From positions 256,001 through 320,000 of the forward strand of contig CAWDVW010000005.1 of NCBI GenBank assembly GCA_963805855.1: a DNA stretch of 64,000 nucleotides, in the 5' to 3' direction. This document shows, in pieces, positions 41,075 through 59,234 of this stretch. Every line of letters starts with the position of its first letter. The stretch's first letter is position 1. The translations under genes and the position numbers were made by a program. The notes under the pieces are model-generated. The model ran no database searches and was not told the DNA's origin. It saw only the letters and a program-made list of their open reading frames with translations. The stretch is from Candidatus Dadabacteria bacterium. Lineage in GTDB: Bacteria; Desulfobacterota_D; UBA1144; Nemesobacterales; CSP1-2.

Positions 41075-42001
41075 ATGATAACAGCCCTTGGAGGAGGGGT
41101 TGGGGCAGCAAAGTTCTTGAGGGGCCTCTCCAAAGTTATAAAAGAAGAATTACTCACGGTAATAGTCAATACTGGCGACGACATTTCTATCTCCGGCCTC
41201 AGAATCTCCCCTGATATAGATATAGTAATCTACTGGCTGTCAAACATCGTAGACAGGAAAAAGGGATGGGGTATCGTGGACGATACCTTCAGCTGTCTGG
41301 AAGCCATGACAAAATTTGGTTTAGAGGGCTGGTTCAGCCTCGGCGACAGGGACATTGCAACACATATTTTTCGAACATACTTGAGGGGAATGGGATTTAA
41401 ACCCTCTGAGATTACCGGCAGAATCGCAAAGGCCTTAGATGTCGGCGACATAAAGATACTCCCCATGACCGATGAAGATGTAGAAACGTGGATTCTCACT
41501 GACGAAGGCGAAATGCACTTTCAGGAATATCTAGTAAAAAAACAGATGAATCCAACCGTGAAATCGGTATTTATTAGGGGTATTGAAAAAGCAAAGCCCG
41601 CCCCCGGAGTAATAGACGCGATAGAAGAGTCAAGGTTAATAATACTATGCCCAAGCAATCCGATAATTAGCATCGGTCCCATACTCAAGATAATTAAGAT
41701 AAGAGAAGCACTCCAAAGGACAAAAGCCAGAATAATGGCAATCAGCCCACTCGTAGGTGGAAAACCATTAAAGGGCCCGGCCGACCGGCTGATGAAGGGC
41801 ATCGGCCTTGAGGTTTCATCAACACAGGTAGCCAAACTCTATAAAGATTTCATTGATGGGATGGTAATCGACGAAAGAGATGCTCTTGAAGCAAATGCAA
41901 TAAGACAATTGGGCATCGAGCCATTTGTACTCGATACAATCATGAATGAAGACGAAAAAGCTGAGCAGGTGGCAAAACAGGTATTGAAGCTATCGGCATA
42001 G
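41075..42001 (+). CDS. cofD: 2-phospho-L-lactate transferase (F420 biosynthesis)
   Basis: LGGGVGAAKF, NTGDD, SPDID, WFSLGDRDIATH, HFQEY, PSNPIISIGPIL and KGPA motifs. Confidence 0.95.
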   Translation: MITALGGGVGAAKFLRGLSKVIKEELLTVIVNTGDDISISGLRISPDIDIVIYWLSNIVDRKKGWGIVDDTFSCLEAMTKFGLEGWFSLGDRDIATHIFRTYLRGMGFKPSEITGRIAKALDVGDIKILPMTDEDVETWILTDEGEMHFQEYLVKKQMNPTVKSVFIRGIEKAKPAPGVIDAIEESRLIILCPSNPIISIGPILKIIKIREALQRTKARIMAISPLVGGKPLKGPADRLMKGIGLEVSSTQVAKLYKDFIDGMVIDERDALEANAIRQLGIEPFVLDTIMNEDEKAEQVAKQVLKLSA

Positions 42002-42149
42002 TAAAATCACCGAAGTGTGAAATCGTTAATTTTTATCAGTCGAGAAAGACTTGACAAGAACCAAATAATCATGTGACTATAATAAAATCATGATGGGTAC
42101 TTGAGTTCATTTATAACTAGCCCAGCGAAGATTTAGAGGGAAAAGCTAA

Positions 42150-43430
42150 AATGATTTCATTCGTTGAAGAAACAGACAATCTATTTTCCTCAGAACAGGT
42201 TTATTCCTCCTTCAAATCACACGGCGTTGAAGTAAACATGGGAAAACCACCGTCGACAAGATTGGAGAAAATATTTCAGGATGCCTACTCATTCGGACAA
42301 TCAGCAGGGAAGACGCACTATCTCTCGTCACTCTTAAAACGGAAGAAATACCCTACTTATTGATAGCTGCCTCTAAAATCAGAGACAGGGGCAAGGGCAG
42401 GACACTCAGCTTCTCAAGGAATATCTTTTTACCACTTACAAGACTCTGCAGGGATCACTGTGGATATTGTACCTTTAAAATTGAACCAGAAGAAGGTGAA
42501 CTCTTTGTACCTCCCGACGAAGTAAAGGATATGGCAAGAAAAGGTGCACAGCTTGGATGCACCGAACTCCTTTTCGTAACGGGTGATAAACCTGAACTTG
42601 TATACCCTTCTTATCGTGAAGCCCTTCGGGACATAGGCTATGAGACGACTGCAGAGTATCTGATAGCGATGTGTGAGGCGGGACTAAGGGAGAACATTTT
42701 CCCTCATTCTAACCTTGGATTGGCAACCAGGGAAGAGCTTCTAGCCCTCAAAGAATCGAACCCGAGCATGGGGCTAATGCTGGAAAACATTAGTCCAAGA
42801 CTCCTGAAGAAAGGCCAGGCACACTACCGCTCGGCCGACAAGGTACCTAAACTCAGGATGAGAACAATGGAACTGGCCGGAGAGTTAAGAATCGCCTGGA
42901 CTAGTGGGATATTGGTGGGCATCGGTGAAACATGGGAAGAAAGGATTGATTCGCTTTATGCATTAAAGAATCTTTCGGACGAATATGGTCATATTCAAGA
43001 AATAATAATACAGAATTTTAGTCCAAAGCACGGAATTATTATGCAAAATTATACACCCCCAAGCTTCATGGAAATGCTTAAGACTGTCGCAATATCAAGG
43101 CTCATTCTTGGAGAGAATATGAATATACAAGTCCCGCCAAATTTAAATCCCAAGACTTATCCGCTATTCATTTTTGCGGGTATAAACGACCTGGGCGGTG
43201 TATCTCCACTTACAATCGACTATGTAAACCCTGAGGCTCCGTGGCCGCATATAAAGACTATGGAGAATCTATGCGATGAGGTCGGATTCAAATTAGAAGA
43301 AAGGCTGCCAGTTTACCCTGAATTTATAAACGAAGAGTTCATAAGCAAACTGGTTCTGGAACGCATTTACAATTTTGTCGACCAGAGTGGATTTGTAAGA
43401 ACGCAGGAGGTTCAGAATGGAAGATATTAA
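42150..43430 (+). CDS. cofG: FO synthase subunit CofG, interrupted by one frameshift near 42300 (mutation or sequencing error)
   Basis: Radical SAM motif PLTRLCRDHCGYC; QVPPNL and DLGGVSPLTIDYVNPEAPWP. The main frame reads upstream as ISREDALSLVTLKTEEIPYLL and joins the short upstream ORF. Confidence 0.88.
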
Positions 43431-44625
43431 AGACGCAATAAAGAGAATCGACGAAAACAGAGGTCTAGGCGTTGAGGCACTACTGACGAAGGTAAATGGG
43501 AGGACCGCATCAATAATAGATAAGGCCTTCAGTGGAGAGGAGATCTCGGTGGACGAAGGAGAACACCTTTTCAATATTAGGGACCTGGATGAAATATCGG
43601 CATTGGCGATATCAGCCGACGAGATAAGAAAAGAGGACGTTGGGGATATCGTAACATATGTGATCAATCGAAACATTAACTTTACAAACATTTGCAATAC
43701 CTATTGCGGATTTTGTAACTTCATGGCCCCCGAGGGAGATGAAAGGGCATACTTTCTAACGATGGAGGAAATCGCGCAAAAAACGATAGAAGCATGGGAA
43801 AACGGCGCAACGGAGGTATGCATGCAGGGAGGCATGCATCCGGATATCGACGGGAATTTTTACGTCGAACTGATAAAATCCGTAAAAAATGCGGTCCCCA
43901 AGATGCATACGCATGCGTTTTCACCCTTTGAGATCTATTATGGAGCCAAGACACTGAACGTAAGCGAAGAAGACTTTATCGAGATGCTAAAGGAAGCAGG
44001 TCATGATACCTTCCCGGGTACTGCCGCAGAGGTCTTGGACGAGGAAGTGCGGACAGTTATAGCTCCCAGGAAGATACCTACACAAACCTGGATCGACGTC
44101 GTGAAGAAGGCACATAAGGCTGGTATGAGGACCACATCCACTATAATGTACGGACACGTCGATAAATCATATCACTGGGCAAGGCATTTAGGCGTCCTCA
44201 GAGATATACAAAAAGAAACAGGTGGCTTCACCGAGTTCGTACCCCTTCGGTTCATTCCTTGGAACACAAGATTATTTCAACACTCAAAGGGCAAAGTCAA
44301 CCCCGGCCCTACAGATCTCGATCAATTAAAGATGTATGGAGTATCTAGGCTTATGCTTCGGGGCTGGATAAACAATATACAGGTTTCCTGGGTTAAGCAG
44401 GGCCCCGAATTCGCACAGTTTTCATTGACTGCGGGCGCAAATGATTTCGGTGGCACGCTGATGGAAGAGCATATCTCGCGGGCTGCCGGGGCAAACCACG
44501 GTCAGTATTTTCCACCGGAGGAATTTCAAAGGCTAACGAAGGAAATCGGAAGGATACCTGCACAGAGAAATACTACATATGGTATTTTGAAGCTTTTTGA
44601 TAGAGATGGAGAAGACCTAAGTTAA
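43417..44625 (+). CDS. cofH: FO synthase subunit CofH
   Basis: NRNINFTNICNTYCGFC, GATEVCMQGG, PGTAAEVLD, NIQVSWVK and GANDFGGTLMEE motifs; adjacent to cofG. Confidence 0.93.
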   Translation: MEDIKDAIKRIDENRGLGVEALLTKVNGRTASIIDKAFSGEEISVDEGEHLFNIRDLDEISALAISADEIRKEDVGDIVTYVINRNINFTNICNTYCGFCNFMAPEGDERAYFLTMEEIAQKTIEAWENGATEVCMQGGMHPDIDGNFYVELIKSVKNAVPKMHTHAFSPFEIYYGAKTLNVSEEDFIEMLKEAGHDTFPGTAAEVLDEEVRTVIAPRKIPTQTWIDVVKKAHKAGMRTTSTIMYGHVDKSYHWARHLGVLRDIQKETGGFTEFVPLRFIPWNTRLFQHSKGKVNPGPTDLDQLKMYGVSRLMLRGWINNIQVSWVKQGPEFAQFSLTAGANDFGGTLMEEHISRAAGANHGQYFPPEEFQRLTKEIGRIPAQRNTTYGILKLFDRDGEDLS

Positions 44626-51333: not shown

Positions 51334-52113
51334 ATGAAATCAGACGATAATAGCATCTCAATAATTCCAGTTAAGTGCCTACCCGAAATAAAACCAGGAG
51401 ACAACCTGGTTGATAACATCTACACCGCAATAACAAGAGAAAACATTCAATTACGTAATGGCGACATCTTAGCGATAGCTCAGAAGATTATTTCTAAGGC
51501 CGAGAACAGATTGGTAGAGCTTAATAATATAACGCCGACACCCTTCGCAATCAGTGTAGGAAAAGAACTCGATAAGGACCCGAAAATAATCGAAATTATA
51601 TTGGGAGAAACAAATAGAATTGTTAAAATGGAAAAGGGTAAGTTAAAAAAAGGAAGATTAATTGTGGAAACGAGACACGGCATAGTTTGCGCCAATGCCG
51701 GCGTAGATGCCTCCAACGTGTCTGGTGGTGATCAAGTTACGCTCCTGCCAAAGGATCCGGATGCCTCTGCGAAAAGCATAGTTGAAACATTTAAAAATAG
51801 ATTTGGAATAGATATAGCTGTTATCATCACAGATACGGTAGGAAGACCATGGCGGATGGGGCTTACCGAAATAGCGATTGGTTGCTGGGGTATAAAGCCT
51901 CTGAAAGATTATAGGGGACAAAAGGACACGAAGGGATACGAGCTTAATGCGACAATTGTCGCAATAGCCGATGAAATTGCAGGAGCAGCAGGGCTAGTCA
52001 TGAAAAAAACCGGAGCCACACCAGTCGTAATAGTAAGAGGGTTAAAGTACGAACGTGGTGGCCTCGGCGCAAAAGAACTTATAAGAAAACCAGAAGAAGA
52101 TCTGTTCCGTTAG
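51334..52113 (+). CDS. cofE: Coenzyme F420-0:L-glutamate ligase
   Basis: LPEIKPGDNL, QKIISKAE, CANAGVDASN, DTVGRPWRMG, ADEIA and EDLFR motifs. Confidence 0.95.
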   Translation: MKSDDNSISIIPVKCLPEIKPGDNLVDNIYTAITRENIQLRNGDILAIAQKIISKAENRLVELNNITPTPFAISVGKELDKDPKIIEIILGETNRIVKMEKGKLKKGRLIVETRHGIVCANAGVDASNVSGGDQVTLLPKDPDASAKSIVETFKNRFGIDIAVIITDTVGRPWRMGLTEIAIGCWGIKPLKDYRGQKDTKGYELNATIVAIADEIAGAAGLVMKKTGATPVVIVRGLKYERGGLGAKELIRKPEEDLFR

Positions 52114-52565
52114 GAAATCATGTGTCTGTAAATAACAATGCCAGGTTAATTAACAGCCTGACCCCTCCTGTTAACCTCTTAAATCGAACCTATTTTCACG
52201 TCGAATCTTATAAAAAAAACTTAAATCAAGCTACCCCGCACCGGTCATCCTGAATATATTTCAGGATCTAAAGGAAGCAAAAGATGCGGACACAAGTTCA
52301 GCATGACTGACTATGAGATTGATCCTCTTAACGCAATTTTTGGAAGGTTGTTCACGTCGTCCACAAGATCGATGACATGAAAACCCATCGGGACAAGAAT
52401 GCCCCGACTATCCATGATAAATACCGACAGCAATCACGATAGGAGCACCTTCTAGCCGCGATTTGATCGGAACTTGAAAGTCTGGCCTATCGAATCCATT
52501 AAACATATTCACAGTTAATTAAAGGGAGATTTTAACCCCGAAACTCAATGCCGCCATCGAGCGCT

Positions 52566-52871
52566 TCATGCTGTAGGTTGATAAACTTGAACTTCTCTCT
52601 TTAGACGCTCAGCCAACTTGTCCTCCGCAATATCAAGATCATAATCCATTTGTAGACCAAGCCAGAACTCGGCAGACATGTCAAAAAATTTGCCTAATCG
52701 TAAAGCCGTGTCTGCCGTAATTCTACGCTTGCCCTGAACTATCTCATTTATCCGCCGGGCCGGTACTCTAATGTCGAGAGCCAACCTATTCTGGCTGATT
52801 CCCATAGGCTTTAAGAACTCTTCAAGTAAGATTTCACCTGGATGTATACCTGCAATTTTTTTAGAACCCAT
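52566..52871 (-). CDS. higA: HigA family antitoxin (HTH, VapI-type)
   Basis: IHPGEILLEEFLKP, RRINEIV.GKR.ITADTALRL and FWLGLQ motifs; AAGGAGG RBS. Confidence 0.95.
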   Translation of the reverse strand: MGSKKIAGIHPGEILLEEFLKPMGISQNRLALDIRVPARRINEIVQGKRRITADTALRLGKFFDMSAEFWLGLQMDYDLDIAEDKLAERLKREVQVYQPTA

Positions 52872-52906
52872 ATTTTAAACCTCCTTAATGTGCCTAGTTC
52901 AACTTC

Positions 52907-53188
52907 CTAATGGTAGTCAACAATTTCGACCTTATAGGCATCGCCTTCATGCCATTCAAAGCAAATTCTCCATTGATCGCTGATCCGGATGCTGTATTGA
53001 CCCTTTCTATCACCATGTAGTGCTTCTAGTCGATTTCCTGGGGGAATAACTAGATCTCTTAACGTCTTTGCCCTGCTTAACATACGAAGTTTTCTGAACG
53101 CAAGTCGTTGAATATTGCGTGGGAATCGTCTCGAATAACTGCGATTGAATATCTTTTCCGTTTCCTTGCATTTGAATGACCTTATCAC
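52907..53188 (-). CDS. higB: HigB family toxin (RelE/ParE superfamily)
   Basis: MIRSF, PPGNRLEAL.GDRKGQYSIRI.DQWRICF and VEIVDYH motifs; toxin precedes antitoxin. Confidence 0.95.
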   Translation of the reverse strand: MIRSFKCKETEKIFNRSYSRRFPRNIQRLAFRKLRMLSRAKTLRDLVIPPGNRLEALHGDRKGQYSIRISDQWRICFEWHEGDAYKVEIVDYH

Positions 53189-53194
53189 TGATAT

Positions 53195-53223
53195 ATTATA
53201 TAACGCGAAGCGTTAAATGGCAA
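53195..53223 (-). promoter_or_regulatory. Sigma70 promoter of higBA with operator palindrome; probably leaderless
   Basis: TTGCCA (53223-53218), 17-nt spacer, TATAAT (53200-53195). Inverted repeat TAACGC-N3-GCGTTA at 53201-53215. The GTG start follows the -10 box after a 6-nt gap. Confidence 0.8.
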
Positions 53224-53342
53224 AAACGGCATGCAGATCTTTAAAAAGTGATGTTTAGCCACACAACCTTTTCGGTTCTGCTAAGGATTACATTACCGAA
53301 GCATATAGGATAAATAGTAGATGATAAATATTAGATACGTAA

Positions 53343-54887
53343 TCAGACATTTAAGGCCGGAAGCAGTAGGATTCGAGGCAAGCGAGGCACTAGACCACGA
53401 TTCAGAGGCACAGGCACTTCGCGGACCTCGACGATCATGAAACCCTGTCTTAGCGCTCGGGCTTTGTAAATATGGGAAAGAAATGTCGGAAAACCCGCTC
53501 TAAACTCATAACTGCCCCGCGGCAATGCTGCCAAACGTAGCCCCAGGGTTTTAATGGCGAGAAACCTCTGCGGACCATAAAACTCTATGAATCGCCCCAC
53601 CTGGCAGAAAACAAGACAATCGGAATTAGCTTTACGTATCAATTGCCAGTACTGAGAATTAAACGTGCGAGCTCGCAAGATACCACGATCATTCCATCGC
53701 TTCTCAATTAACCAACCGGACCGCTGGAAAAGAGCCGAAAGCCACCCGTGCCGCTTCCACGTCTCTTCCCATTGCCTGAGTCCTAAACCATGTTGCAGGT
53801 GACCGGCATAGGAGGCCAATACCGAATTCAATCTCTTTACACTGCCGTTTTTGTCGTGCCGACTGAGATCGATGCATTTAGCTTTTCCGTGCCAGGCTGG
53901 CTCGACTACCGAGCGCTCAAACGCACCCAAACGCTTCTTTAGATTTCCCAATGTACGCCGACGTGGCAGGCGTCGATTCCACCAGGTCTTCCACCCGACA
54001 AAATCGATGCCATTCCCAACCGAAAATGGAGTAGATATGTCGCTCCGAATCTCAAGCTTTAACCCCTCATGTAGGAAAATCGCAATAGATTTGGCCCAAT
54101 CAGCTAATAACTCCCTGTCTTGTGCCAGCAAAATCATGTCGTCCACGTAACGCAGGTAATATTTGCTCTTAAGAGTCCGCTTCATAAACTGATCGAGTTC
54201 ATTCAGAAATACATTTCCCCAGAATTGACTAGTGAGATTACCGATAGGAAGCCCTCGCTCGTTCTGTCTTCCGAAAAGGCTCTTGTGAGGTGGTACTGGG
54301 TAGCCAGGAGTCCCGGGCGCGCCCACGTCTTTTCTAAGTGACTTAAAGCGGTAGTTAGTCGTTGGGTCATGAAATAGAAGAATACCAGTAAGCCAGAGCA
54401 ACTCAGGATTGGTGATGTTGCGGGAAATTATTTGGAACAGCGTTTCTTTGTGGATTGATGGGAAAAAATTAGCCACATCAAGCTTCAAGGCCCATGCCGG
54501 CCGCTTTCCATTGGCCGTTATTTTTCTGAGAAAGAGCATCAGCCTGTCGCTCGCGGCCAGGCTTCCCTTCCCTTTTCGGCACGCATACGAGTCATGGATG
54601 AAACGAAACTCGAATATTCGCTCCTGGTGAGAAACAAGGAGGTGATGCACCACGCGGTCTCGAAAATCGGCGGCAAATACCTCACGCGGCTTCGGACCGT
54701 CGGTGATGAAGCAGATAGAACGCCCCGGCTTGTAAGTGTGATCCCGTAGCTCTTTACTTAAAGCGAGAAGGTTTGCCTCGGCGTTTATCTCGAAGGTGAG
54801 GGCATTGGCTGTATTGCGCTTGTTGCGGCGGCACTGGCGGTAGCACCGCCACAAAGCGCTGAAGGAATAGACGTCAGGTCCTATCAC
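53343..54887 (-). CDS. DGR reverse transcriptase with C-terminal MutS domain-I-like fusion
   Basis: PKPREVFAADFRDRVVHH, DSYACRKGKG, LKLDVANFFPSI, GLPIGNLTSQ (DGR SQ motif), LRYVDD and GIDFVG. From about aa 410: QYWQL...LVFCQVGRFIEFY...LGL...AGFP...QGFMI. Confidence 0.95.
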   Translation of the reverse strand: MIGPDVYSFSALWRCYRQCRRNKRNTANALTFEINAEANLLALSKELRDHTYKPGRSICFITDGPKPREVFAADFRDRVVHHLLVSHQERIFEFRFIHDSYACRKGKGSLAASDRLMLFLRKITANGKRPAWALKLDVANFFPSIHKETLFQIISRNITNPELLWLTGILLFHDPTTNYRFKSLRKDVGAPGTPGYPVPPHKSLFGRQNERGLPIGNLTSQFWGNVFLNELDQFMKRTLKSKYYLRYVDDMILLAQDRELLADWAKSIAIFLHEGLKLEIRSDISTPFSVGNGIDFVGWKTWWNRRLPRRRTLGNLKKRLGAFERSVVEPAWHGKAKCIDLSRHDKNGSVKRLNSVLASYAGHLQHGLGLRQWEETWKRHGWLSALFQRSGWLIEKRWNDRGILRARTFNSQYWQLIRKANSDCLVFCQVGRFIEFYGPQRFLAIKTLGLRLAALPRGSYEFRAGFPTFLSHIYKARALRQGFMIVEVREVPVPLNRGLVPRLPRILLLPALNV

Positions 54888-55020
54888 GAGCCACCACGAA
54901 CTGGAAGTACGAAGTTGTTGTTGGTCTTATTGTTGTTGTTCACGTTGCCATTGTTGAAATTGACGTTCCATGCGTTGTTCGGGTTGTTGGCGTTTGTAGT
55001 AGACGACCAGTAGTTGGATG
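54883..55020 (-). repeat. DGR template repeat (TR), 138 nt
   Basis: AAC/AAT-rich (18 AAY codons); aligns end to end with the VR at 55870-56010. Confidence 0.96.
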
Positions 55021-55182
55021 CGGCACATACCCTCTCCGCTTGTTCCTGCACACTTTCAGTAAAACTATGCACAGACCCGGGTAACTGACTCCGGTCCATA
55101 GGGAGAAAGATACCCTTGTGCCTAGGCTCCGCCACGGAGCTTTGGCGTTCGCCTGACCTCAGGCGGGAGAGGGACCTCGTGA

Positions 55183-55581
55183 TCACGGCGCGCTCGACCC
55201 GGCTAGCCCTGTTGGCATTGCCTGCCGATCCTGGCCATGGCCCTGACGTTTCAACCAACCTTCATTCTGCTTCGCTATCTCAGTCACTAAACTAATTGCG
55301 TGCTCGAAAGAATTGAAGTTCGGAAATGCCTTCACATCGTGGCACAGCCGAAGCAAGACCTTAAGCTCTTCCAGCACTTCTCTCAATTCTAAAAGGGTCT
55401 GTTCCTTGTCGCGGCGGGAATTTGCCCTCACGACGAGCTTTAAGACCTCCCTTGCACCGTTTCTAAGATCTGCCCCTATCGAATACTTGTGGTAGCGAGA
55501 GAAATTGCGAATTACCTGCTCAAAGTAGAGACATAGATCATATGCACTCTTGTAAATTGGTAAATGCTCTGTTTGAGCCAT
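55183..55581 (-). CDS. avd: Avd accessory variability determinant (four-helix bundle protein)
   Basis: HLPIYKSAYDL, FSRYHKYSIGADLR, LKVLLRLC and IAKQNEGW motifs; position upstream of TR; GGAGAGG RBS. Confidence 0.92.
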   Translation of the reverse strand: MAQTEHLPIYKSAYDLCLYFEQVIRNFSRYHKYSIGADLRNGAREVLKLVVRANSRRDKEQTLLELREVLEELKVLLRLCHDVKAFPNFNSFEHAISLVTEIAKQNEGWLKRQGHGQDRQAMPTGLAGSSAP

Positions 55582-55800
55582 TAGATCCTCTCCGGAGATT
55601 ATCCTTCAATCGATCATAAATTGAGTCGCACTGATAAATTCGTGCCTACAATGCTCCGACCCTTCCCCGATTTTATCGGGGATTGAGTAAAAATGTAGGG
55701 ACTGATGCCCGCTTCAGTCCGAAAGCTCGTTCGGGGAACGAGCCCTACATTTTCTCATGCTTCGACAAGCCTGAGCAAAGCCGAAGGGCTCAGCATGAAC

Positions 55801-55819
55801 GGGTGGGAAACTCCCACCC
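55801..55819. other. GC-rich hairpin/cruciform downstream of VR (candidate DGR homing element)
   Basis: GGGTGGGA-AAC-TCCCACCC, a perfect 8-bp stem about 50 nt past the target stop codon. Confidence 0.7.
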
Positions 55820-55869
55820 ACAACCCCACCAAGATCAAATTATCAAATTGTCAAATGATCAAATAACCA

Positions 55870-56010
55870 ATCACGAGCCACCACGAACTGGAAGTACGAA
55901 GACGCTGAGGGTGGCCTTAATGCTGAAGCTCACGACGCCAATGACGAAATCGACGACCCACGCGAAGACCGGGCCGTTGGCGACCGTAGTAGACGACCAG
56001 TAGAAGGATG
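55870..56010 (-). repeat. DGR variable repeat (VR), 141 nt, at the 3' end of the target gene
   Basis: 30 substitutions versus TR, all at TR adenines, plus one GCC codon insertion; the 3'-terminal segment of about 30 nt is identical to TR. Confidence 0.96.
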
Positions 56011-56584
56011 GCTGAAAGTTCATGAATGGGTGGCCAGTCGGCAACGCTGGATTAAAGTTTCCAAGATCAAGCAGGCTCGTCAAGTTCATTCCGGTTCGGC
56101 AAATACCAATCCCCTTCAGCGGAACCATCCATAAGGCCACATTCTCCGCTATTTAGAGTATTCGCATCTGTTAACGCTTGCGCCCACGTGCGAGGCCCGA
56201 AACAGTTCGCGTTCTTTAGCCAAATAAGCCCTGTCAGATTATCTGTGATCGTCCCATCCATGTTATCCATAAACCGCGGGTCCGGTGGCACTGGACTCCC
56301 GCCTGAATATCACCATCGTGCTCCAGTGTTGGCGCAATCTATAACATTTCCACCAGAGTCCAGAAGTAGTCTGACCAGTCTGCGGCACTGGAGCAGGCGG
56401 CTGCGCCTCACACGCTGCAAGATCAGCATCGCACGCTACCGAGGTTATCTTGGCAGATTGCAAGATTGATGCGCTACGAGAGAACAGCCTGGTGGCTGCG
56501 CATGTGCTATACCTCGCCCACGACACCGCTCCCACTAAACCCAAGACAAAATGATATAAATAACATAAGAAATACCTTTTTCAT
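55871..56584 (-). pseudogene. DGR target: exported DUF1566/Lcl-C-terminal (C-type lectin fold) protein, broken by multiple frameshifts
   Basis: AGGAGG RBS, signal-like MKKVFLMLF, then PVPQTGQTT / DGDIQAGV / PRFMDNMDGTITDNLTGLIW / DWYLPNRNEL / SLLD..PALP.GHPF / YWSSTT..AW.VDF..VLPVRGG spread over different frames. Confidence 0.85.
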
Positions 56585-57138
56585 GGCATTTTACCTCCTC
56601 TGGTTATCATTCATATATTTGAGTCAACTTGTGCTTTAATATAAAATTCCTGTATCGATTAATATCCTCTGCCCCGGTTACGTTAGTATGCAATCCGACT
56701 TGAGCCATGTATAGATTTCACATTTTTACGGAATAAAGTAATGGGATTAGAAAATAAGATAGCTGCGGATAAGTGCTTCAGATTGATACAGCTTGCGGTT
56801 GATAAGGACTCATAAAAAAACAGTTCCCTCAGGCCCCAAGTGGGAATTTGTCGCTGCACCAACTCCACGACTATCCTCCACCGAAAGTTGTATTCAACGT
56901 TACCAGATTCAGCGCTGAAAGATGCAAATAGAAAACAATTTAAGAAAGATAGGGATTGCTCGGGACATGTCCCGCTAAACAAACATCAGTCAGGGGCAAA
57001 TCTAGAATCCACAATAACTGCTTTTAGGAATGTCTGAGATTTTTTCGGATTTCTTCAAGATTGAAATAAGATCCTGAGTCGCAATAACTCCCTGCTTTGG
57101 CAATGAGACGCGAGATTGATGCGTCATCTACCGTAATC

Positions 57139-57259
57139 GGCGTTCCAAAAATTGCGTTAAGAAAATAATGAACGGAGACGTTAAGAAAAATTTGCGGGTT
57201 GTGGCCGGATTAAATTTTTTAGTCGGAGTTCATGATTTTTAGCGAATTTTTGGGGAGCC
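57139..57259 (+). repeat. MITE-like repeat family B, copy (121 bp)
   Basis: Same length and ends as 45002-45122; same downstream CTTTGTATCAAGACAAAG hairpin. Confidence 0.8.
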
Positions 57260-57461
57260 TTGATTTTTGCTTCTTTGTATCAAGACAAAGAAGTTAAAAA
57301 GAGAGGTAAGATAATTGAACAAAATACTATTAAGGACTCTTTCCGCGGATTATCTTGCTTTTTCAGCAACAACATGTATAGAGAAACCCTGAAAGGAATG
57401 ATCAAGTTAACGGAAATGATCCCCGCTATGCCGGATTTACCGAAATGATATAATCTTTTAG

Positions 57462-59234
57462 ATGAACCCGATCAAGAATAAAGCGACTGCCGCTTTACTA
57501 TTGTTTCTAATTTCCTTTTTCTTATACTCGCCCTCACTCAGAAACGATTTTGTATGGGATGACATTGAGGTTATTCAAAAGAGCTATCATAGTTTTAAGG
57601 CATCACGTATTAAAGCCATATTATTCCCTGAGGCAAAACAGGACAAAACCCAGCGCTACTATAGACCCATAATATTTGTATCAACGGTCACAGACCATGA
57701 GTTTTGGGGAATAAATCCTTTCGGTTTTCACCTTAGTAATCTCCTGCTCAATTCTATCTCCACAATGCTTCTTTATTTTTTACTGCTTCTCATTTTTGGG
57801 AGATTTTCAGTCGAAGGAAAAGAATCCATATCCTTTTTCACCGCCCTACTCTTCGCGGTCTATCCGATGCATGTAGAATCGGTGTCCTGGATAGCGGGAA
57901 GGACTGATATTCTCTGCGGTATTTTTTTCATACTTGCATTAATCCTTCATATCGAATCCTTTCATACCATTTGGCTTCTGATACTGACGGCACTCAGCTT
58001 TTCCCTTTCTCTACTTTCGAAAGAAGTTGCTTTATCGTTTCCTGTCGTGGTGATTTCGTTCGATCTCTTAACCCGACGGATAAGAAATCGATTCAACATA
58101 TTACGATACACAGTTTACATCTCGCTTGCCCTACTTTACTTATACTTGCGGGGAAGAGCATTCATTAATCCTATAGAATTTACGAATGAAAATATCCGTC
58201 AGATAACCGAAGGTAAATATTATTTTTTCAACATAATTAAAACTTTTAAGGTCCTTTCAAGCTCTCTCTTCTTCTATTTTAGCAAACTTGTTTTCCCATT
58301 CGATTTCAATGCTTTTATTATTTCGGTGCCACATGAATTCTACTACTTCATATTCTCAATAACGACGATTTTACTTTTATTCATCGTCGCCGTGATATCC
58401 ATAAAACAGGGGAAGGGTTTAATTGCCTTCTGTATAATCTGGATATTTGCGACGCTTGCGCCATCGGCCATCGTTTCAGTCACAAGTTTAGCCTCCGCAC
58501 CCCTGGCAGAGAGATACCTGTATATTCCATCAGCCGGTTACTGCATGATTATCGGTTATCTACTATTTGAAGTAGCGAAAAGAATTGGCAAAGAGAATAT
58601 CGCTTTTGCCCTGATCGTAATATTAATTTCAATCTATCTATTTTTTACTCTTCAAAGACAGGAGGTGTGGAAAGACAATTTGTCACTCTGGAAAGACACC
58701 GCATCCAAATCATACTATCATGCACTACCCCATTCGAATTATGGATATGCACTGGAAAAAGCCGGTAGGACTGATGACGCTATAAAGCAATATGAAATCG
58801 CCCTTGATCCAAGTGTCAGAGACTCAAATAGAGGTAGAGCAATCACTGCAACGAATCTGGGAGTCTTATATCTCGATAAAGAAGATTATGCAAATGCCGA
58901 GAGGTGGTTTAGGAAAGCTCTAAAGTATGATCCTACTTACGGAAGACCATATTATCACATGGGTCTTTTACACTATATAAAGGGTGAATTAACAAACTCA
59001 GAGTCAGAATATAGAATAGCGGCAAGATACCTAGAAAAGACCTTTGAGATATATCGGTATTATCCGAAGGCAGATCTACTATTTGCGAAAGTTTACTTCA
59101 ACCTCGGTTACAATGACAAAGCAAAACGGCACGCTAAAAAGGCATTACAAGGCGGTCTGAGCGAAGCTTTATCCAAAGAGGCCATGGAAATCCTAAATAT
59201 AGATGATGATAAGAGTAATCAAAAACCAAATTAA
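57462..59234 (+). CDS. TMTC-like membrane glycosyltransferase (GT-C) with C-terminal TPR repeats
   Basis: FVWDD, YYRP, ESVSWIAGRTD, LLSKE, AERYLYIPS, VWKDNLSLW motifs and TPRs. Confidence 0.85.
   Translation: MNPIKNKATAALLLFLISFFLYSPSLRNDFVWDDIEVIQKSYHSFKASRIKAILFPEAKQDKTQRYYRPIIFVSTVTDHEFWGINPFGFHLSNLLLNSISTMLLYFLLLLIFGRFSVEGKESISFFTALLFAVYPMHVESVSWIAGRTDILCGIFFILALILHIESFHTIWLLILTALSFSLSLLSKEVALSFPVVVISFDLLTRRIRNRFNILRYTVYISLALLYLYLRGRAFINPIEFTNENIRQITEGKYYFFNIIKTFKVLSSSLFFYFSKLVFPFDFNAFIISVPHEFYYFIFSITTILLLFIVAVISIKQGKGLIAFCIIWIFATLAPSAIVSVTSLASAPLAERYLYIPSAGYCMIIGYLLFEVAKRIGKENIAFALIVILISIYLFFTLQRQEVWKDNLSLWKDTASKSYYHALPHSNYGYALEKAGRTDDAIKQYEIALDPSVRDSNRGRAITATNLGVLYLDKEDYANAERWFRKALKYDPTYGRPYYHMGLLHYIKGELTNSESEYRIAARYLEKTFEIYRYYPKADLLFAKVYFNLGYNDKAKRHAKKALQGGLSEALSKEAMEILNIDDDKSNQKPN

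Follow-up and report, generated by a model that had tools for sequence, protein, structure and literature searches.

Among the described systems closest to the element analysed here is the diversity-generating retroelement (DGR) of Legionella pneumophila, whose target is LdtA and which the relevant passages of Wu et al. (2018; PMC5758913) assign to category 'd' / CLec2. As summarized in those passages, it is chromosomal and carried on an island, has its variable repeat (VR) at the C-terminus of a C-type-lectin-like surface protein of the DUF1566 type, and comprises avd, a GC-rich inverted repeat downstream of VR and a MutS-related component. In this work we analysed a 64-kb stretch of a Candidatus Dadabacteria genome (contig CAWDVW010000005.1, hereafter the window) that carries a cassette with the same set of properties; all coordinates are positions in the window, and the cassette lies on the minus strand. 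We show that this element is a genuine DGR of known architecture and target class, and that it is cellular and not phage-borne. Contigs of other samples and one protein indicate that it has diversified recently in its natural population. It differs from the Legionella DGR in two respects. The MutS-like part is a separate small gene, MSL, in Legionella (as given in the same source, PMC5758913), whereas here it forms the C-terminal domain of the reverse transcriptase (RT), and the target described here has no lipobox and is interrupted in the assembly.

The DGR of Bordetella phage BPP-1 (mtd-avd-TR-brt, where TR is the template repeat) has the same gene order as the present cassette, and the two also share adenine-specific mutagenesis, an invariant 3' end of the initiation of mutagenic homing (IMH) type and a hairpin after VR. 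Unlike the BPP-1 element, this one has no phage around it, and no spacer separates TR from RT, as the GTG start of RT shares 5 nt with the end of TR. RT is 514 amino acids (aa) long, with an added C-terminal domain, compared with 328 aa in BPP-1, and IMH and IMH* are identical here while they differ in BPP-1 (passages on IMH in PMC5758913). The three RTs described in the same source as bearing MutS_I likewise have a C-terminal extension that matches this family; in the present case the extension is backed by a Pfam score above the cut-off, by sequence matches in the PDB and by a predicted fold. In the literature library that was searched, no paper names both 'Dadabacteria' and 'diversity-generating retroelement'. 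The present element is thus a well-documented addition to the cellular DGRs, and its lineage has received little study.

Template repeat, variable repeat and cassette

The elements that define the cassette are the following.

54883-55020, minus strand: template repeat (TR) of 138 nt; it contains 48 adenines, and 18 of its codons specify Asn (15 AAC, 3 AAT)
55870-56010, minus strand: variable repeat (VR) of 141 nt, encoding the C-terminus of the target
53343-54887, minus strand: DGR reverse transcriptase, 514 aa, GTG start
55183-55581, minus strand: avd accessory gene, 132 aa, intact (Pfam bAvd PF22296, E=4.5e-16)

In a gapped local alignment TR and VR differ by 30 substitutions, which are 15 A>T, 14 A>G and 1 A>C; none of the 30 falls on a non-A position of TR (gapped alignment of 54883-55020 against 55870-56010). 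The 101-nt variable part holds 44 of the 48 TR adenines, and the probability that 30 randomly placed mismatches would all be on A is 3.7e-18 (hypergeometric). The last 31 nt are the same in TR and VR, without any difference, and form the IMH-like invariant 3' end. VR in the window alters 17 of the 18 Asn codons of TR. An extra A>T is present immediately beyond the stop codon (TR 54882 / VR 55869), outside the coordinates of the two repeats. VR is 141 nt long instead of 138 because it has an additional GCC at 55913-55915.

The initial annotation, made by a model from the letters alone, had counted 30 substitutions by hand, all at TR adenines among 44 in the variable part, and had described an invariant 3' end; the gapped alignment and the 31 identical nucleotides agree with both statements, and its translations of TR and VR were correct as written. 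It also described the two repeats as aligning end to end. The coordinates are right, but the alignment needs a gap for the 3-bp GCC indel, which had gone unmentioned. A formal alignment was checked for many non-adenine mismatches, an outcome incompatible with a DGR; it contains none, and the DGR call stands. The search of the genome (3.11 Mb, 9 contigs, 93.8% complete) for further VRs that the annotation had proposed was carried out with TR as the query, and it returned TR and VR 55870-56010 alone, with no second VR; the six other matches were chance matches of 14-17 nt (E>3). There is likewise no second Lcl_C gene, the family to which the target belongs, in this 93.8% complete genome.

The gene order on the minus strand is target, avd, TR, RT. 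RT matches Pfam RVT_1 (E=1.3e-11) and phrog_1423 (E=2.8e-100). Of all solved chains, 8ub7_A ('Reverse transcriptase') is its best match (E=5.1e-33), and we take this chain to be the Bordetella enzyme. The motifs IGNLTSQ and YVDD are present in its sequence, IGxxxSQ being the signature of DGR RTs. Relative to 8ub7_A, residues ~159-211 (54252-54413) contain an insertion of ~35 residues, located between the two blocks that align with this chain (query 9-158 and 212-324). The avd product matches phrog_3206, 'Avd protein of DGR' (E=5.4e-28), and the RT and Avd frames are both undamaged. An Rfam scan of 52000-58000 gave no match at E<=1, and no tRNA was found within the window.

Related cassettes share the gene order and have A-biased TR/VR pairs, with mismatches at A in 20/20 cases in L016, 20/21 in L017, 15/17 in L048 and 29/34 in L015. 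The closest related cassette, L014, belongs to a different genus (its metagenome-assembled genome, MAG, is labelled Candidatus Dadabacteria) and encodes an RT that is 76% identical. In L014 avd is split over two frames near residue 80 (L014:1-391), and the contig stops before VR.

The way in which the element would act can be proposed from what the DGR family does. The avd-TR-RT region would be transcribed, and RT, with Avd, would copy the TR RNA to cDNA with misincorporation opposite adenines. The cDNA would then replace VR at the 3' end of the Lcl_C/DUF1566 gene, rewriting up to 18 Asn codons on what would be the ligand-binding face of an exported C-type-lectin-like protein. VR would be distinguished from TR by elements found only after VR, namely four 8-nt ATTTGA repeats and a GC hairpin.

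Recent diversification and the frame of the target gene

Parts of the window are contained in 24 marsh or salt-marsh metagenome runs, among which no RNA run is listed; the best of them has a share of 0.39 of the sampled words. We compared Logan contigs of four runs (X1-X4) over 53000-57000. Against 53000-56291, which includes RT, TR, avd and the spacer, the contigs of other runs show 0-2 other letters per piece and are gap-free except in VR and at 56081. For VR, at least 19 differences between runs are listed, 18 of which can be mapped to TR, and 17 of these 18 are at TR-adenine positions. The variant VR can be assigned to the same locus because a 686-nt X2 contig spans avd, spacer and VR. A protein search with a 74-aa fragment of the target also found P0099, an intact 223-aa protein from a 2366-nt Joint Genome Institute (JGI) contig that is 99% identical over this fragment; a metagenome scan with the same fragment found no same-species locus, the best identity being 86%. 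The VR of P0099 has the same length as TR. At 9 of the 18 TR Asn positions it departs from the window VR, with which it agrees at the remaining 9, and the differences are confined to TR Asn positions and two 3-bp indels. Since the VRs of other runs differ from the window VR at TR-adenine positions, diversification in the population is recent. The polymorphism at TR-adenine positions that the initial annotation proposed to look for in reads is visible, in contigs and in P0099 rather than in raw reads.

The length differences of VR, of 3 bp each, are at 55913 and 56009 and are both in frame; indels in multiples of 3 bp have been described for DGRs (sections of PMC5758913 on repeat alignments). 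Compared with P0099 and with the X1 and X2 contigs, the window VR has an extra in-frame Pro codon (56009-56011), placed precisely where the homology of TR and VR ends on the 5' side. This extra codon may reflect imprecise 5' resolution of cDNA integration.

The target gene and a variant block within it are as follows.

55871-56584, minus strand: target gene, with a signal-like N-terminus and an Lcl_C/DUF1566 domain; five frame switches in the assembly
56292-56368, minus strand: 77-nt block with three frame switches; 46 other letters in the X1-X3 contigs

The gene extends from an ATG at 56584 to a stop at 55871. It begins with a hydrophobic signal-like segment, and VR ends at the stop codon of the Lcl_C domain. 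When 55871-56584 is read in three frames, homology to intact relatives persists through five frame switches. The pieces are, in order, MKKVFLMLFISFCLGF, GAVSWA, IAHAQPPGCSLVAH, NLAICQDN, ACDADLAACEAQPPAPVPQTGQTTS, DSGGNVIDCANTG, HDGDIQAGV, VPPDPRFMDN...NRNEL and TSLLDLG...VR. Pfam matches Lcl_C on two separate frames, with profile positions 1-54 on one and 52-117 on the other. All five switches fall within ~520 nt, and two of them coincide with the borders of the 77-nt block, which is a 'long' variant like that of L067; P0099 has the short variant. The frame damage is local to the target, as in the rest of the 64-kb window no Pfam-matched frame of 120 aa or more has its family divided between two frames. 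The initial annotation had called the DGR complete. RT, avd, TR and VR are indeed all present, but the target changes frame five times before VR is reached. The proposal of a cellular DGR that diversifies an exported ligand-binding protein is right about the cellular location. The diversification of such a protein, like the label 'complete', applies at the level of the population, where an intact allele exists; in this assembly the frame of the target is broken.

Identity to the other contigs drops abruptly at 56291/56292, from 100% to a region with ~3% substitutions and indels, and because no run exceeds 0.39 of the sampled words, none of the runs yielded sequence like that of the source over 56292-56990. 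The X1 and X2 contigs have one base fewer at each of 56535, 56512, 56468 and 56441; one base is also missing at 56081 in X1, X2 and X4 or, in another X4 contig, at 56079. For all 24 of the 24 gap letters over 56369-56987, and likewise for the gap at 56081, it is the window that has the additional base. When the contig differences are applied, the frame that starts with the ATG at 56584 stays open as far as the stop at 55871, with a predicted product of 223 aa. This is the length of P0099, whose sequence fits each of the window pieces in turn. The frameshifted 93-aa frame has no match in a collection of 5.8 billion protein clusters.

We consider it more likely than not that the frame switches do not reflect the true state of the gene and arose locally as an artefact, either of consensus calling or of a mosaic assembly, where strains vary. 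Natural gene decay in bacteria is deletion-biased, and an artefact is favoured because all the gap letters are extra bases in the window, opposite to this bias. It is also favoured by the abrupt change at 56291/56292, by the two switches at the borders of the 77-nt block and by flanks identical to those of strains with the intact allele. It is also possible, although we rather doubt it, that the frameshifts are real and that the only DGR target of the strain is a pseudogene. The cassette would then be decaying, or an intact RT and Avd would still be rewriting the VR of a dead gene, as retrohoming needs no target translation. Several observations weigh against the artefact and at the same time support a dead gene. 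The N-terminal part of the window gene is ~3% substituted compared with the other contigs (20 substitutions in 619 nt) and the window allele contains a real 'long' sequence variant like that of L067, so that this is a distinct allele rather than just a noisy copy, and such an allele may really be dead. At 56081 the extra base is surrounded by sequence in which the window and the other runs do not differ. The frameshift in avd of L014, seen in a separate assembly, makes decay of the DGR lineage plausible. A further point against the artefact is that the comparison uses Logan contigs of other runs, not the source reads, and that contigs drop rare variants. A pseudogene would also agree with the clustering of five switches in ~520 nt while the surrounding 63 kb are clean and with the lack of a second VR or Lcl_C gene in the genome. 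In addition, TR and VR show no non-A mismatch although the gene is damaged upstream of VR, which would fit homing after the death of the gene. Opposed to it is the fact that the five coding differences and the 24 upstream gap letters are all extra bases in the window. Furthermore, the flanks are 100% identical to those of strains with an intact allele, so that five independent inactivations would have had to follow one another within a short time. Two of the switches are at the borders of the 77-nt variant block, the frameshifted frame is not seen elsewhere, and RT and Avd are undamaged.

Two further explanations can be considered, both of which we regard as extremely improbable. In one of them, programmed frameshifting or recoding of some other kind would allow the target to be translated across the switches. 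Its only support is that each frame piece retains homology to intact relatives; it would require five switches, in different directions and at non-slippery places, and near-identical strains carry intact single-frame alleles. Programmed frameshifting was rejected on account of these switch sites and intact alleles. In the other, the locus would not be a DGR at all, and an ordinary duplication of a gene end would lie beside an unrelated RT of the retron or group II intron type. Nothing speaks in its favour, the sole departure from the textbook pattern being the 3-bp length difference between the repeats, and such multiple-of-3-bp indels are themselves described for DGRs (PMC5758913, same sections). 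With 30 of 30 mismatches on A (p=3.7e-18), an Avd protein, an RT that is nearest to 8ub7_A and contains IGNLTSQ, and a VR that varies between samples at TR-adenine positions, this explanation has very little room. Ordinary or chance repeat duplication was rejected as well, being ruled out by the A-specific substitution pattern. A local artefact thus remains our preferred explanation for the frame switches. Whatever their origin, a call of a 'complete DGR' from one assembly can conceal a disrupted target.

The C-terminus of RT and the elements downstream of VR

Four features of the cassette concern the C-terminus of RT and the region between VR and avd.

53424-53663, minus strand: MutS domain I-like domain of RT (residues 409-488), Pfam MutS_I PF01624
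55835-55864, minus strand: four 8-nt repeats in tandem (ATTTGAyn), immediately behind the target stop; they follow VR, not TR
55800-55820, minus strand: GC-rich hairpin with a 9-bp stem and a 3-nt loop, ~50 nt downstream of VR
55690-55753, no strand assigned: palindromic dispersed repeat in the VR-avd spacer, with 22-nt arms that are 77% complementary

Residues 409-488 of RT match PF01624 with 23.8 bits for a cut-off of 20.6, and the MutS_I match of RT in the genome scan has 26.9 bits. The domain also matches MSH6 and Taq MutS (E=0.003-0.006), in an alignment that places VGRFIEFY opposite VGKFYELY and RFIEF opposite KFYEL of MSH6. Phe-x-Glu is the mismatch-contact motif of MutS domain I. Across eight relatives the Glu of this motif is invariant and the Phe is present in 7/8, with Tyr in L017. 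A model predicted from the alignment of eight sequences has a mean predicted local distance difference test score (pLDDT) of 64, with 71-87 in the core. Among the Foldseek matches listed for it in the PDB, all are MutS, MSH3 or MSH6 chains, and 40 have E<=0.001. The predicted model and the sequence matches agree that the C-terminus of RT has a MutS domain I-like fold. An extension of the MutS_I type is found in 8 of 53 related loci, in MAGs labelled Dadabacteria, Myxococcota, Binatia, Gammaproteobacteria and Enterobacteriaceae, and the genome under study also encodes a canonical MutS of 872 aa. The feature is known though little studied, as it has already been described: the passages of Wu et al. 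(2018; PMC5758913) that deal with accessory components report that, among 372 DGRs, three related RTs have a weak C-terminal MutS_I motif and 16 DGRs carry a MutS-like accessory gene that is separate.

The hairpin at 55800-55820 is part of the centroid structure of a 121-nt stretch with a z-score of -2.4, and it is absent after TR. Four of the RT-MutS_I relatives have an identified TR/VR pair (L015, L016, L017 and L048), and all four have a GC hairpin at the corresponding place. They also carry three or four TTTGR words with an 8-9-nt period right after the target stop, and the order in each is TTTGR repeats, GC hairpin, avd. More widely, of the 69 related metagenome loci with an Lcl_C target and at least 60 nt downstream, 15 contain at least three TTTGR words within the first 60 nt, where ~0.12 words are expected by chance. 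When we tried to link the ATTTGA repeats to a type of RT, an RT match lay within the flanks of only 1 of 79 target loci. Individual loci with TTTGA or TTTGG repeats include L015, L016, L017, L048, L067, L068 and L072, and further L073, L084, L088, L089, L128 and L133; the layout of stop codon, TTTGA/TTTGG repeats and hairpin is conserved in Lcl_C-target DGR cassettes of several phyla.

As TR and VR have the same 31-nt 3' end, we infer that VR is recognized through elements which follow it but do not follow TR. According to the part of Wu et al. (2018; PMC5758913) that treats IMH, identity of IMH and IMH* implies recognition further downstream, and the downstream elements named there for DGRs are GC-rich inverted repeats only. 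The position of the ATTTGA repeats in the sequence suggests that they may be a recognition element that marks VR. They provide a lead on how VR is told from TR when IMH and IMH* are identical and, together with the RT-MutS fusion, on how DGR cDNA becomes fixed in the target. Taken jointly, the MutS domain of RT, the ATTTGA repeats present only after VR and the hairpin may even define a DGR subtype. In such a subtype RT would recognize the A-to-N mismatches between cDNA and target, and the repeats, not a difference between IMH and IMH*, would mark the recipient site; RT would in addition shield these mismatches from the host MutS, or direct repair towards fixation of the mutated strand. We put this joint proposal forward as speculative, and think it unlikely to be correct.

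The palindromic repeat in the VR-avd spacer has five other partial copies in the genome. Unrelated contigs of other runs share only ~30 nt of it (55689-55720).

The island, its neighbours and its distribution

The cassette is part of a larger segment, which also contains a toxin-antitoxin pair.

52444-57365, no strand assigned: 4.9-kb island with HigBA and the DGR, absent from two same-genus genomes
52566-52871, minus strand: HigA-like helix-turn-helix antitoxin (Pfam HTH_3 PF01381, E=7.4e-8)
52907-53188, minus strand: HigB-like toxin of the RelE family, forming a type II pair (Pfam HigB-like_toxin PF05015, E=3.8e-19)

The segment 52444-57365 is an island, as its flanks join in two genomes of the same genus: in G005 and G006 position 52443 is joined to 57366 or 57372, with 61 or 69 nt between, and the flanks are 88-91% identical. 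HigBA (52566-53188) is directly downstream of RT. The HigA-like protein matches phrog_1381, 'plasmid antitoxin with HTH domain' (E=1.5e-24), and the HigB-like toxin matches phrog_3066 (E=3.2e-34). HigBA was not found beside related cassettes in the eight loci tested, and its link with the DGR is therefore treated as local. A 31-nt inverted repeat, 84% complementary, brackets the island (52326-52356 and 57132-57162), its left arm being just outside and its right arm just inside.

The genes on either side are cofE (51334-52113) and a gene for a multi-pass membrane protein with tetratricopeptide repeats (TPR; 57462-59234). The initial annotation had placed the cassette between cofE and a TMTC-like gene; both flanks are as it said, the second being this membrane and TPR protein, but the HigB/HigA pair separates cofE from RT. 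Its statement that phage and integrase genes are lacking nearby agrees with our scans, since no integrase or phage structural family was found with Pfam in 45 frames of the window (all but six of at least 120 aa), or with PHROGs in 10 proteins around the cassette. The DGR belongs to the cell and not to a phage.

Among 14 other genomes of the family one has the RT, and of two genomes of the genus neither does. In the one family relative that has it, RT is 76% identical and cofE only 60%, a difference that hints at lateral spread of the DGR, as judged from these sequence identities. Finally, the F420 biosynthesis genes cofD, cofG, cofH and cofE are located near one another (41075-44625 and 51334-52113), and among them are genes for a large FAD-oxidase/CCG protein and for a fusion of AMP-binding, acyl carrier protein (ACP) and acyltransferase domains.

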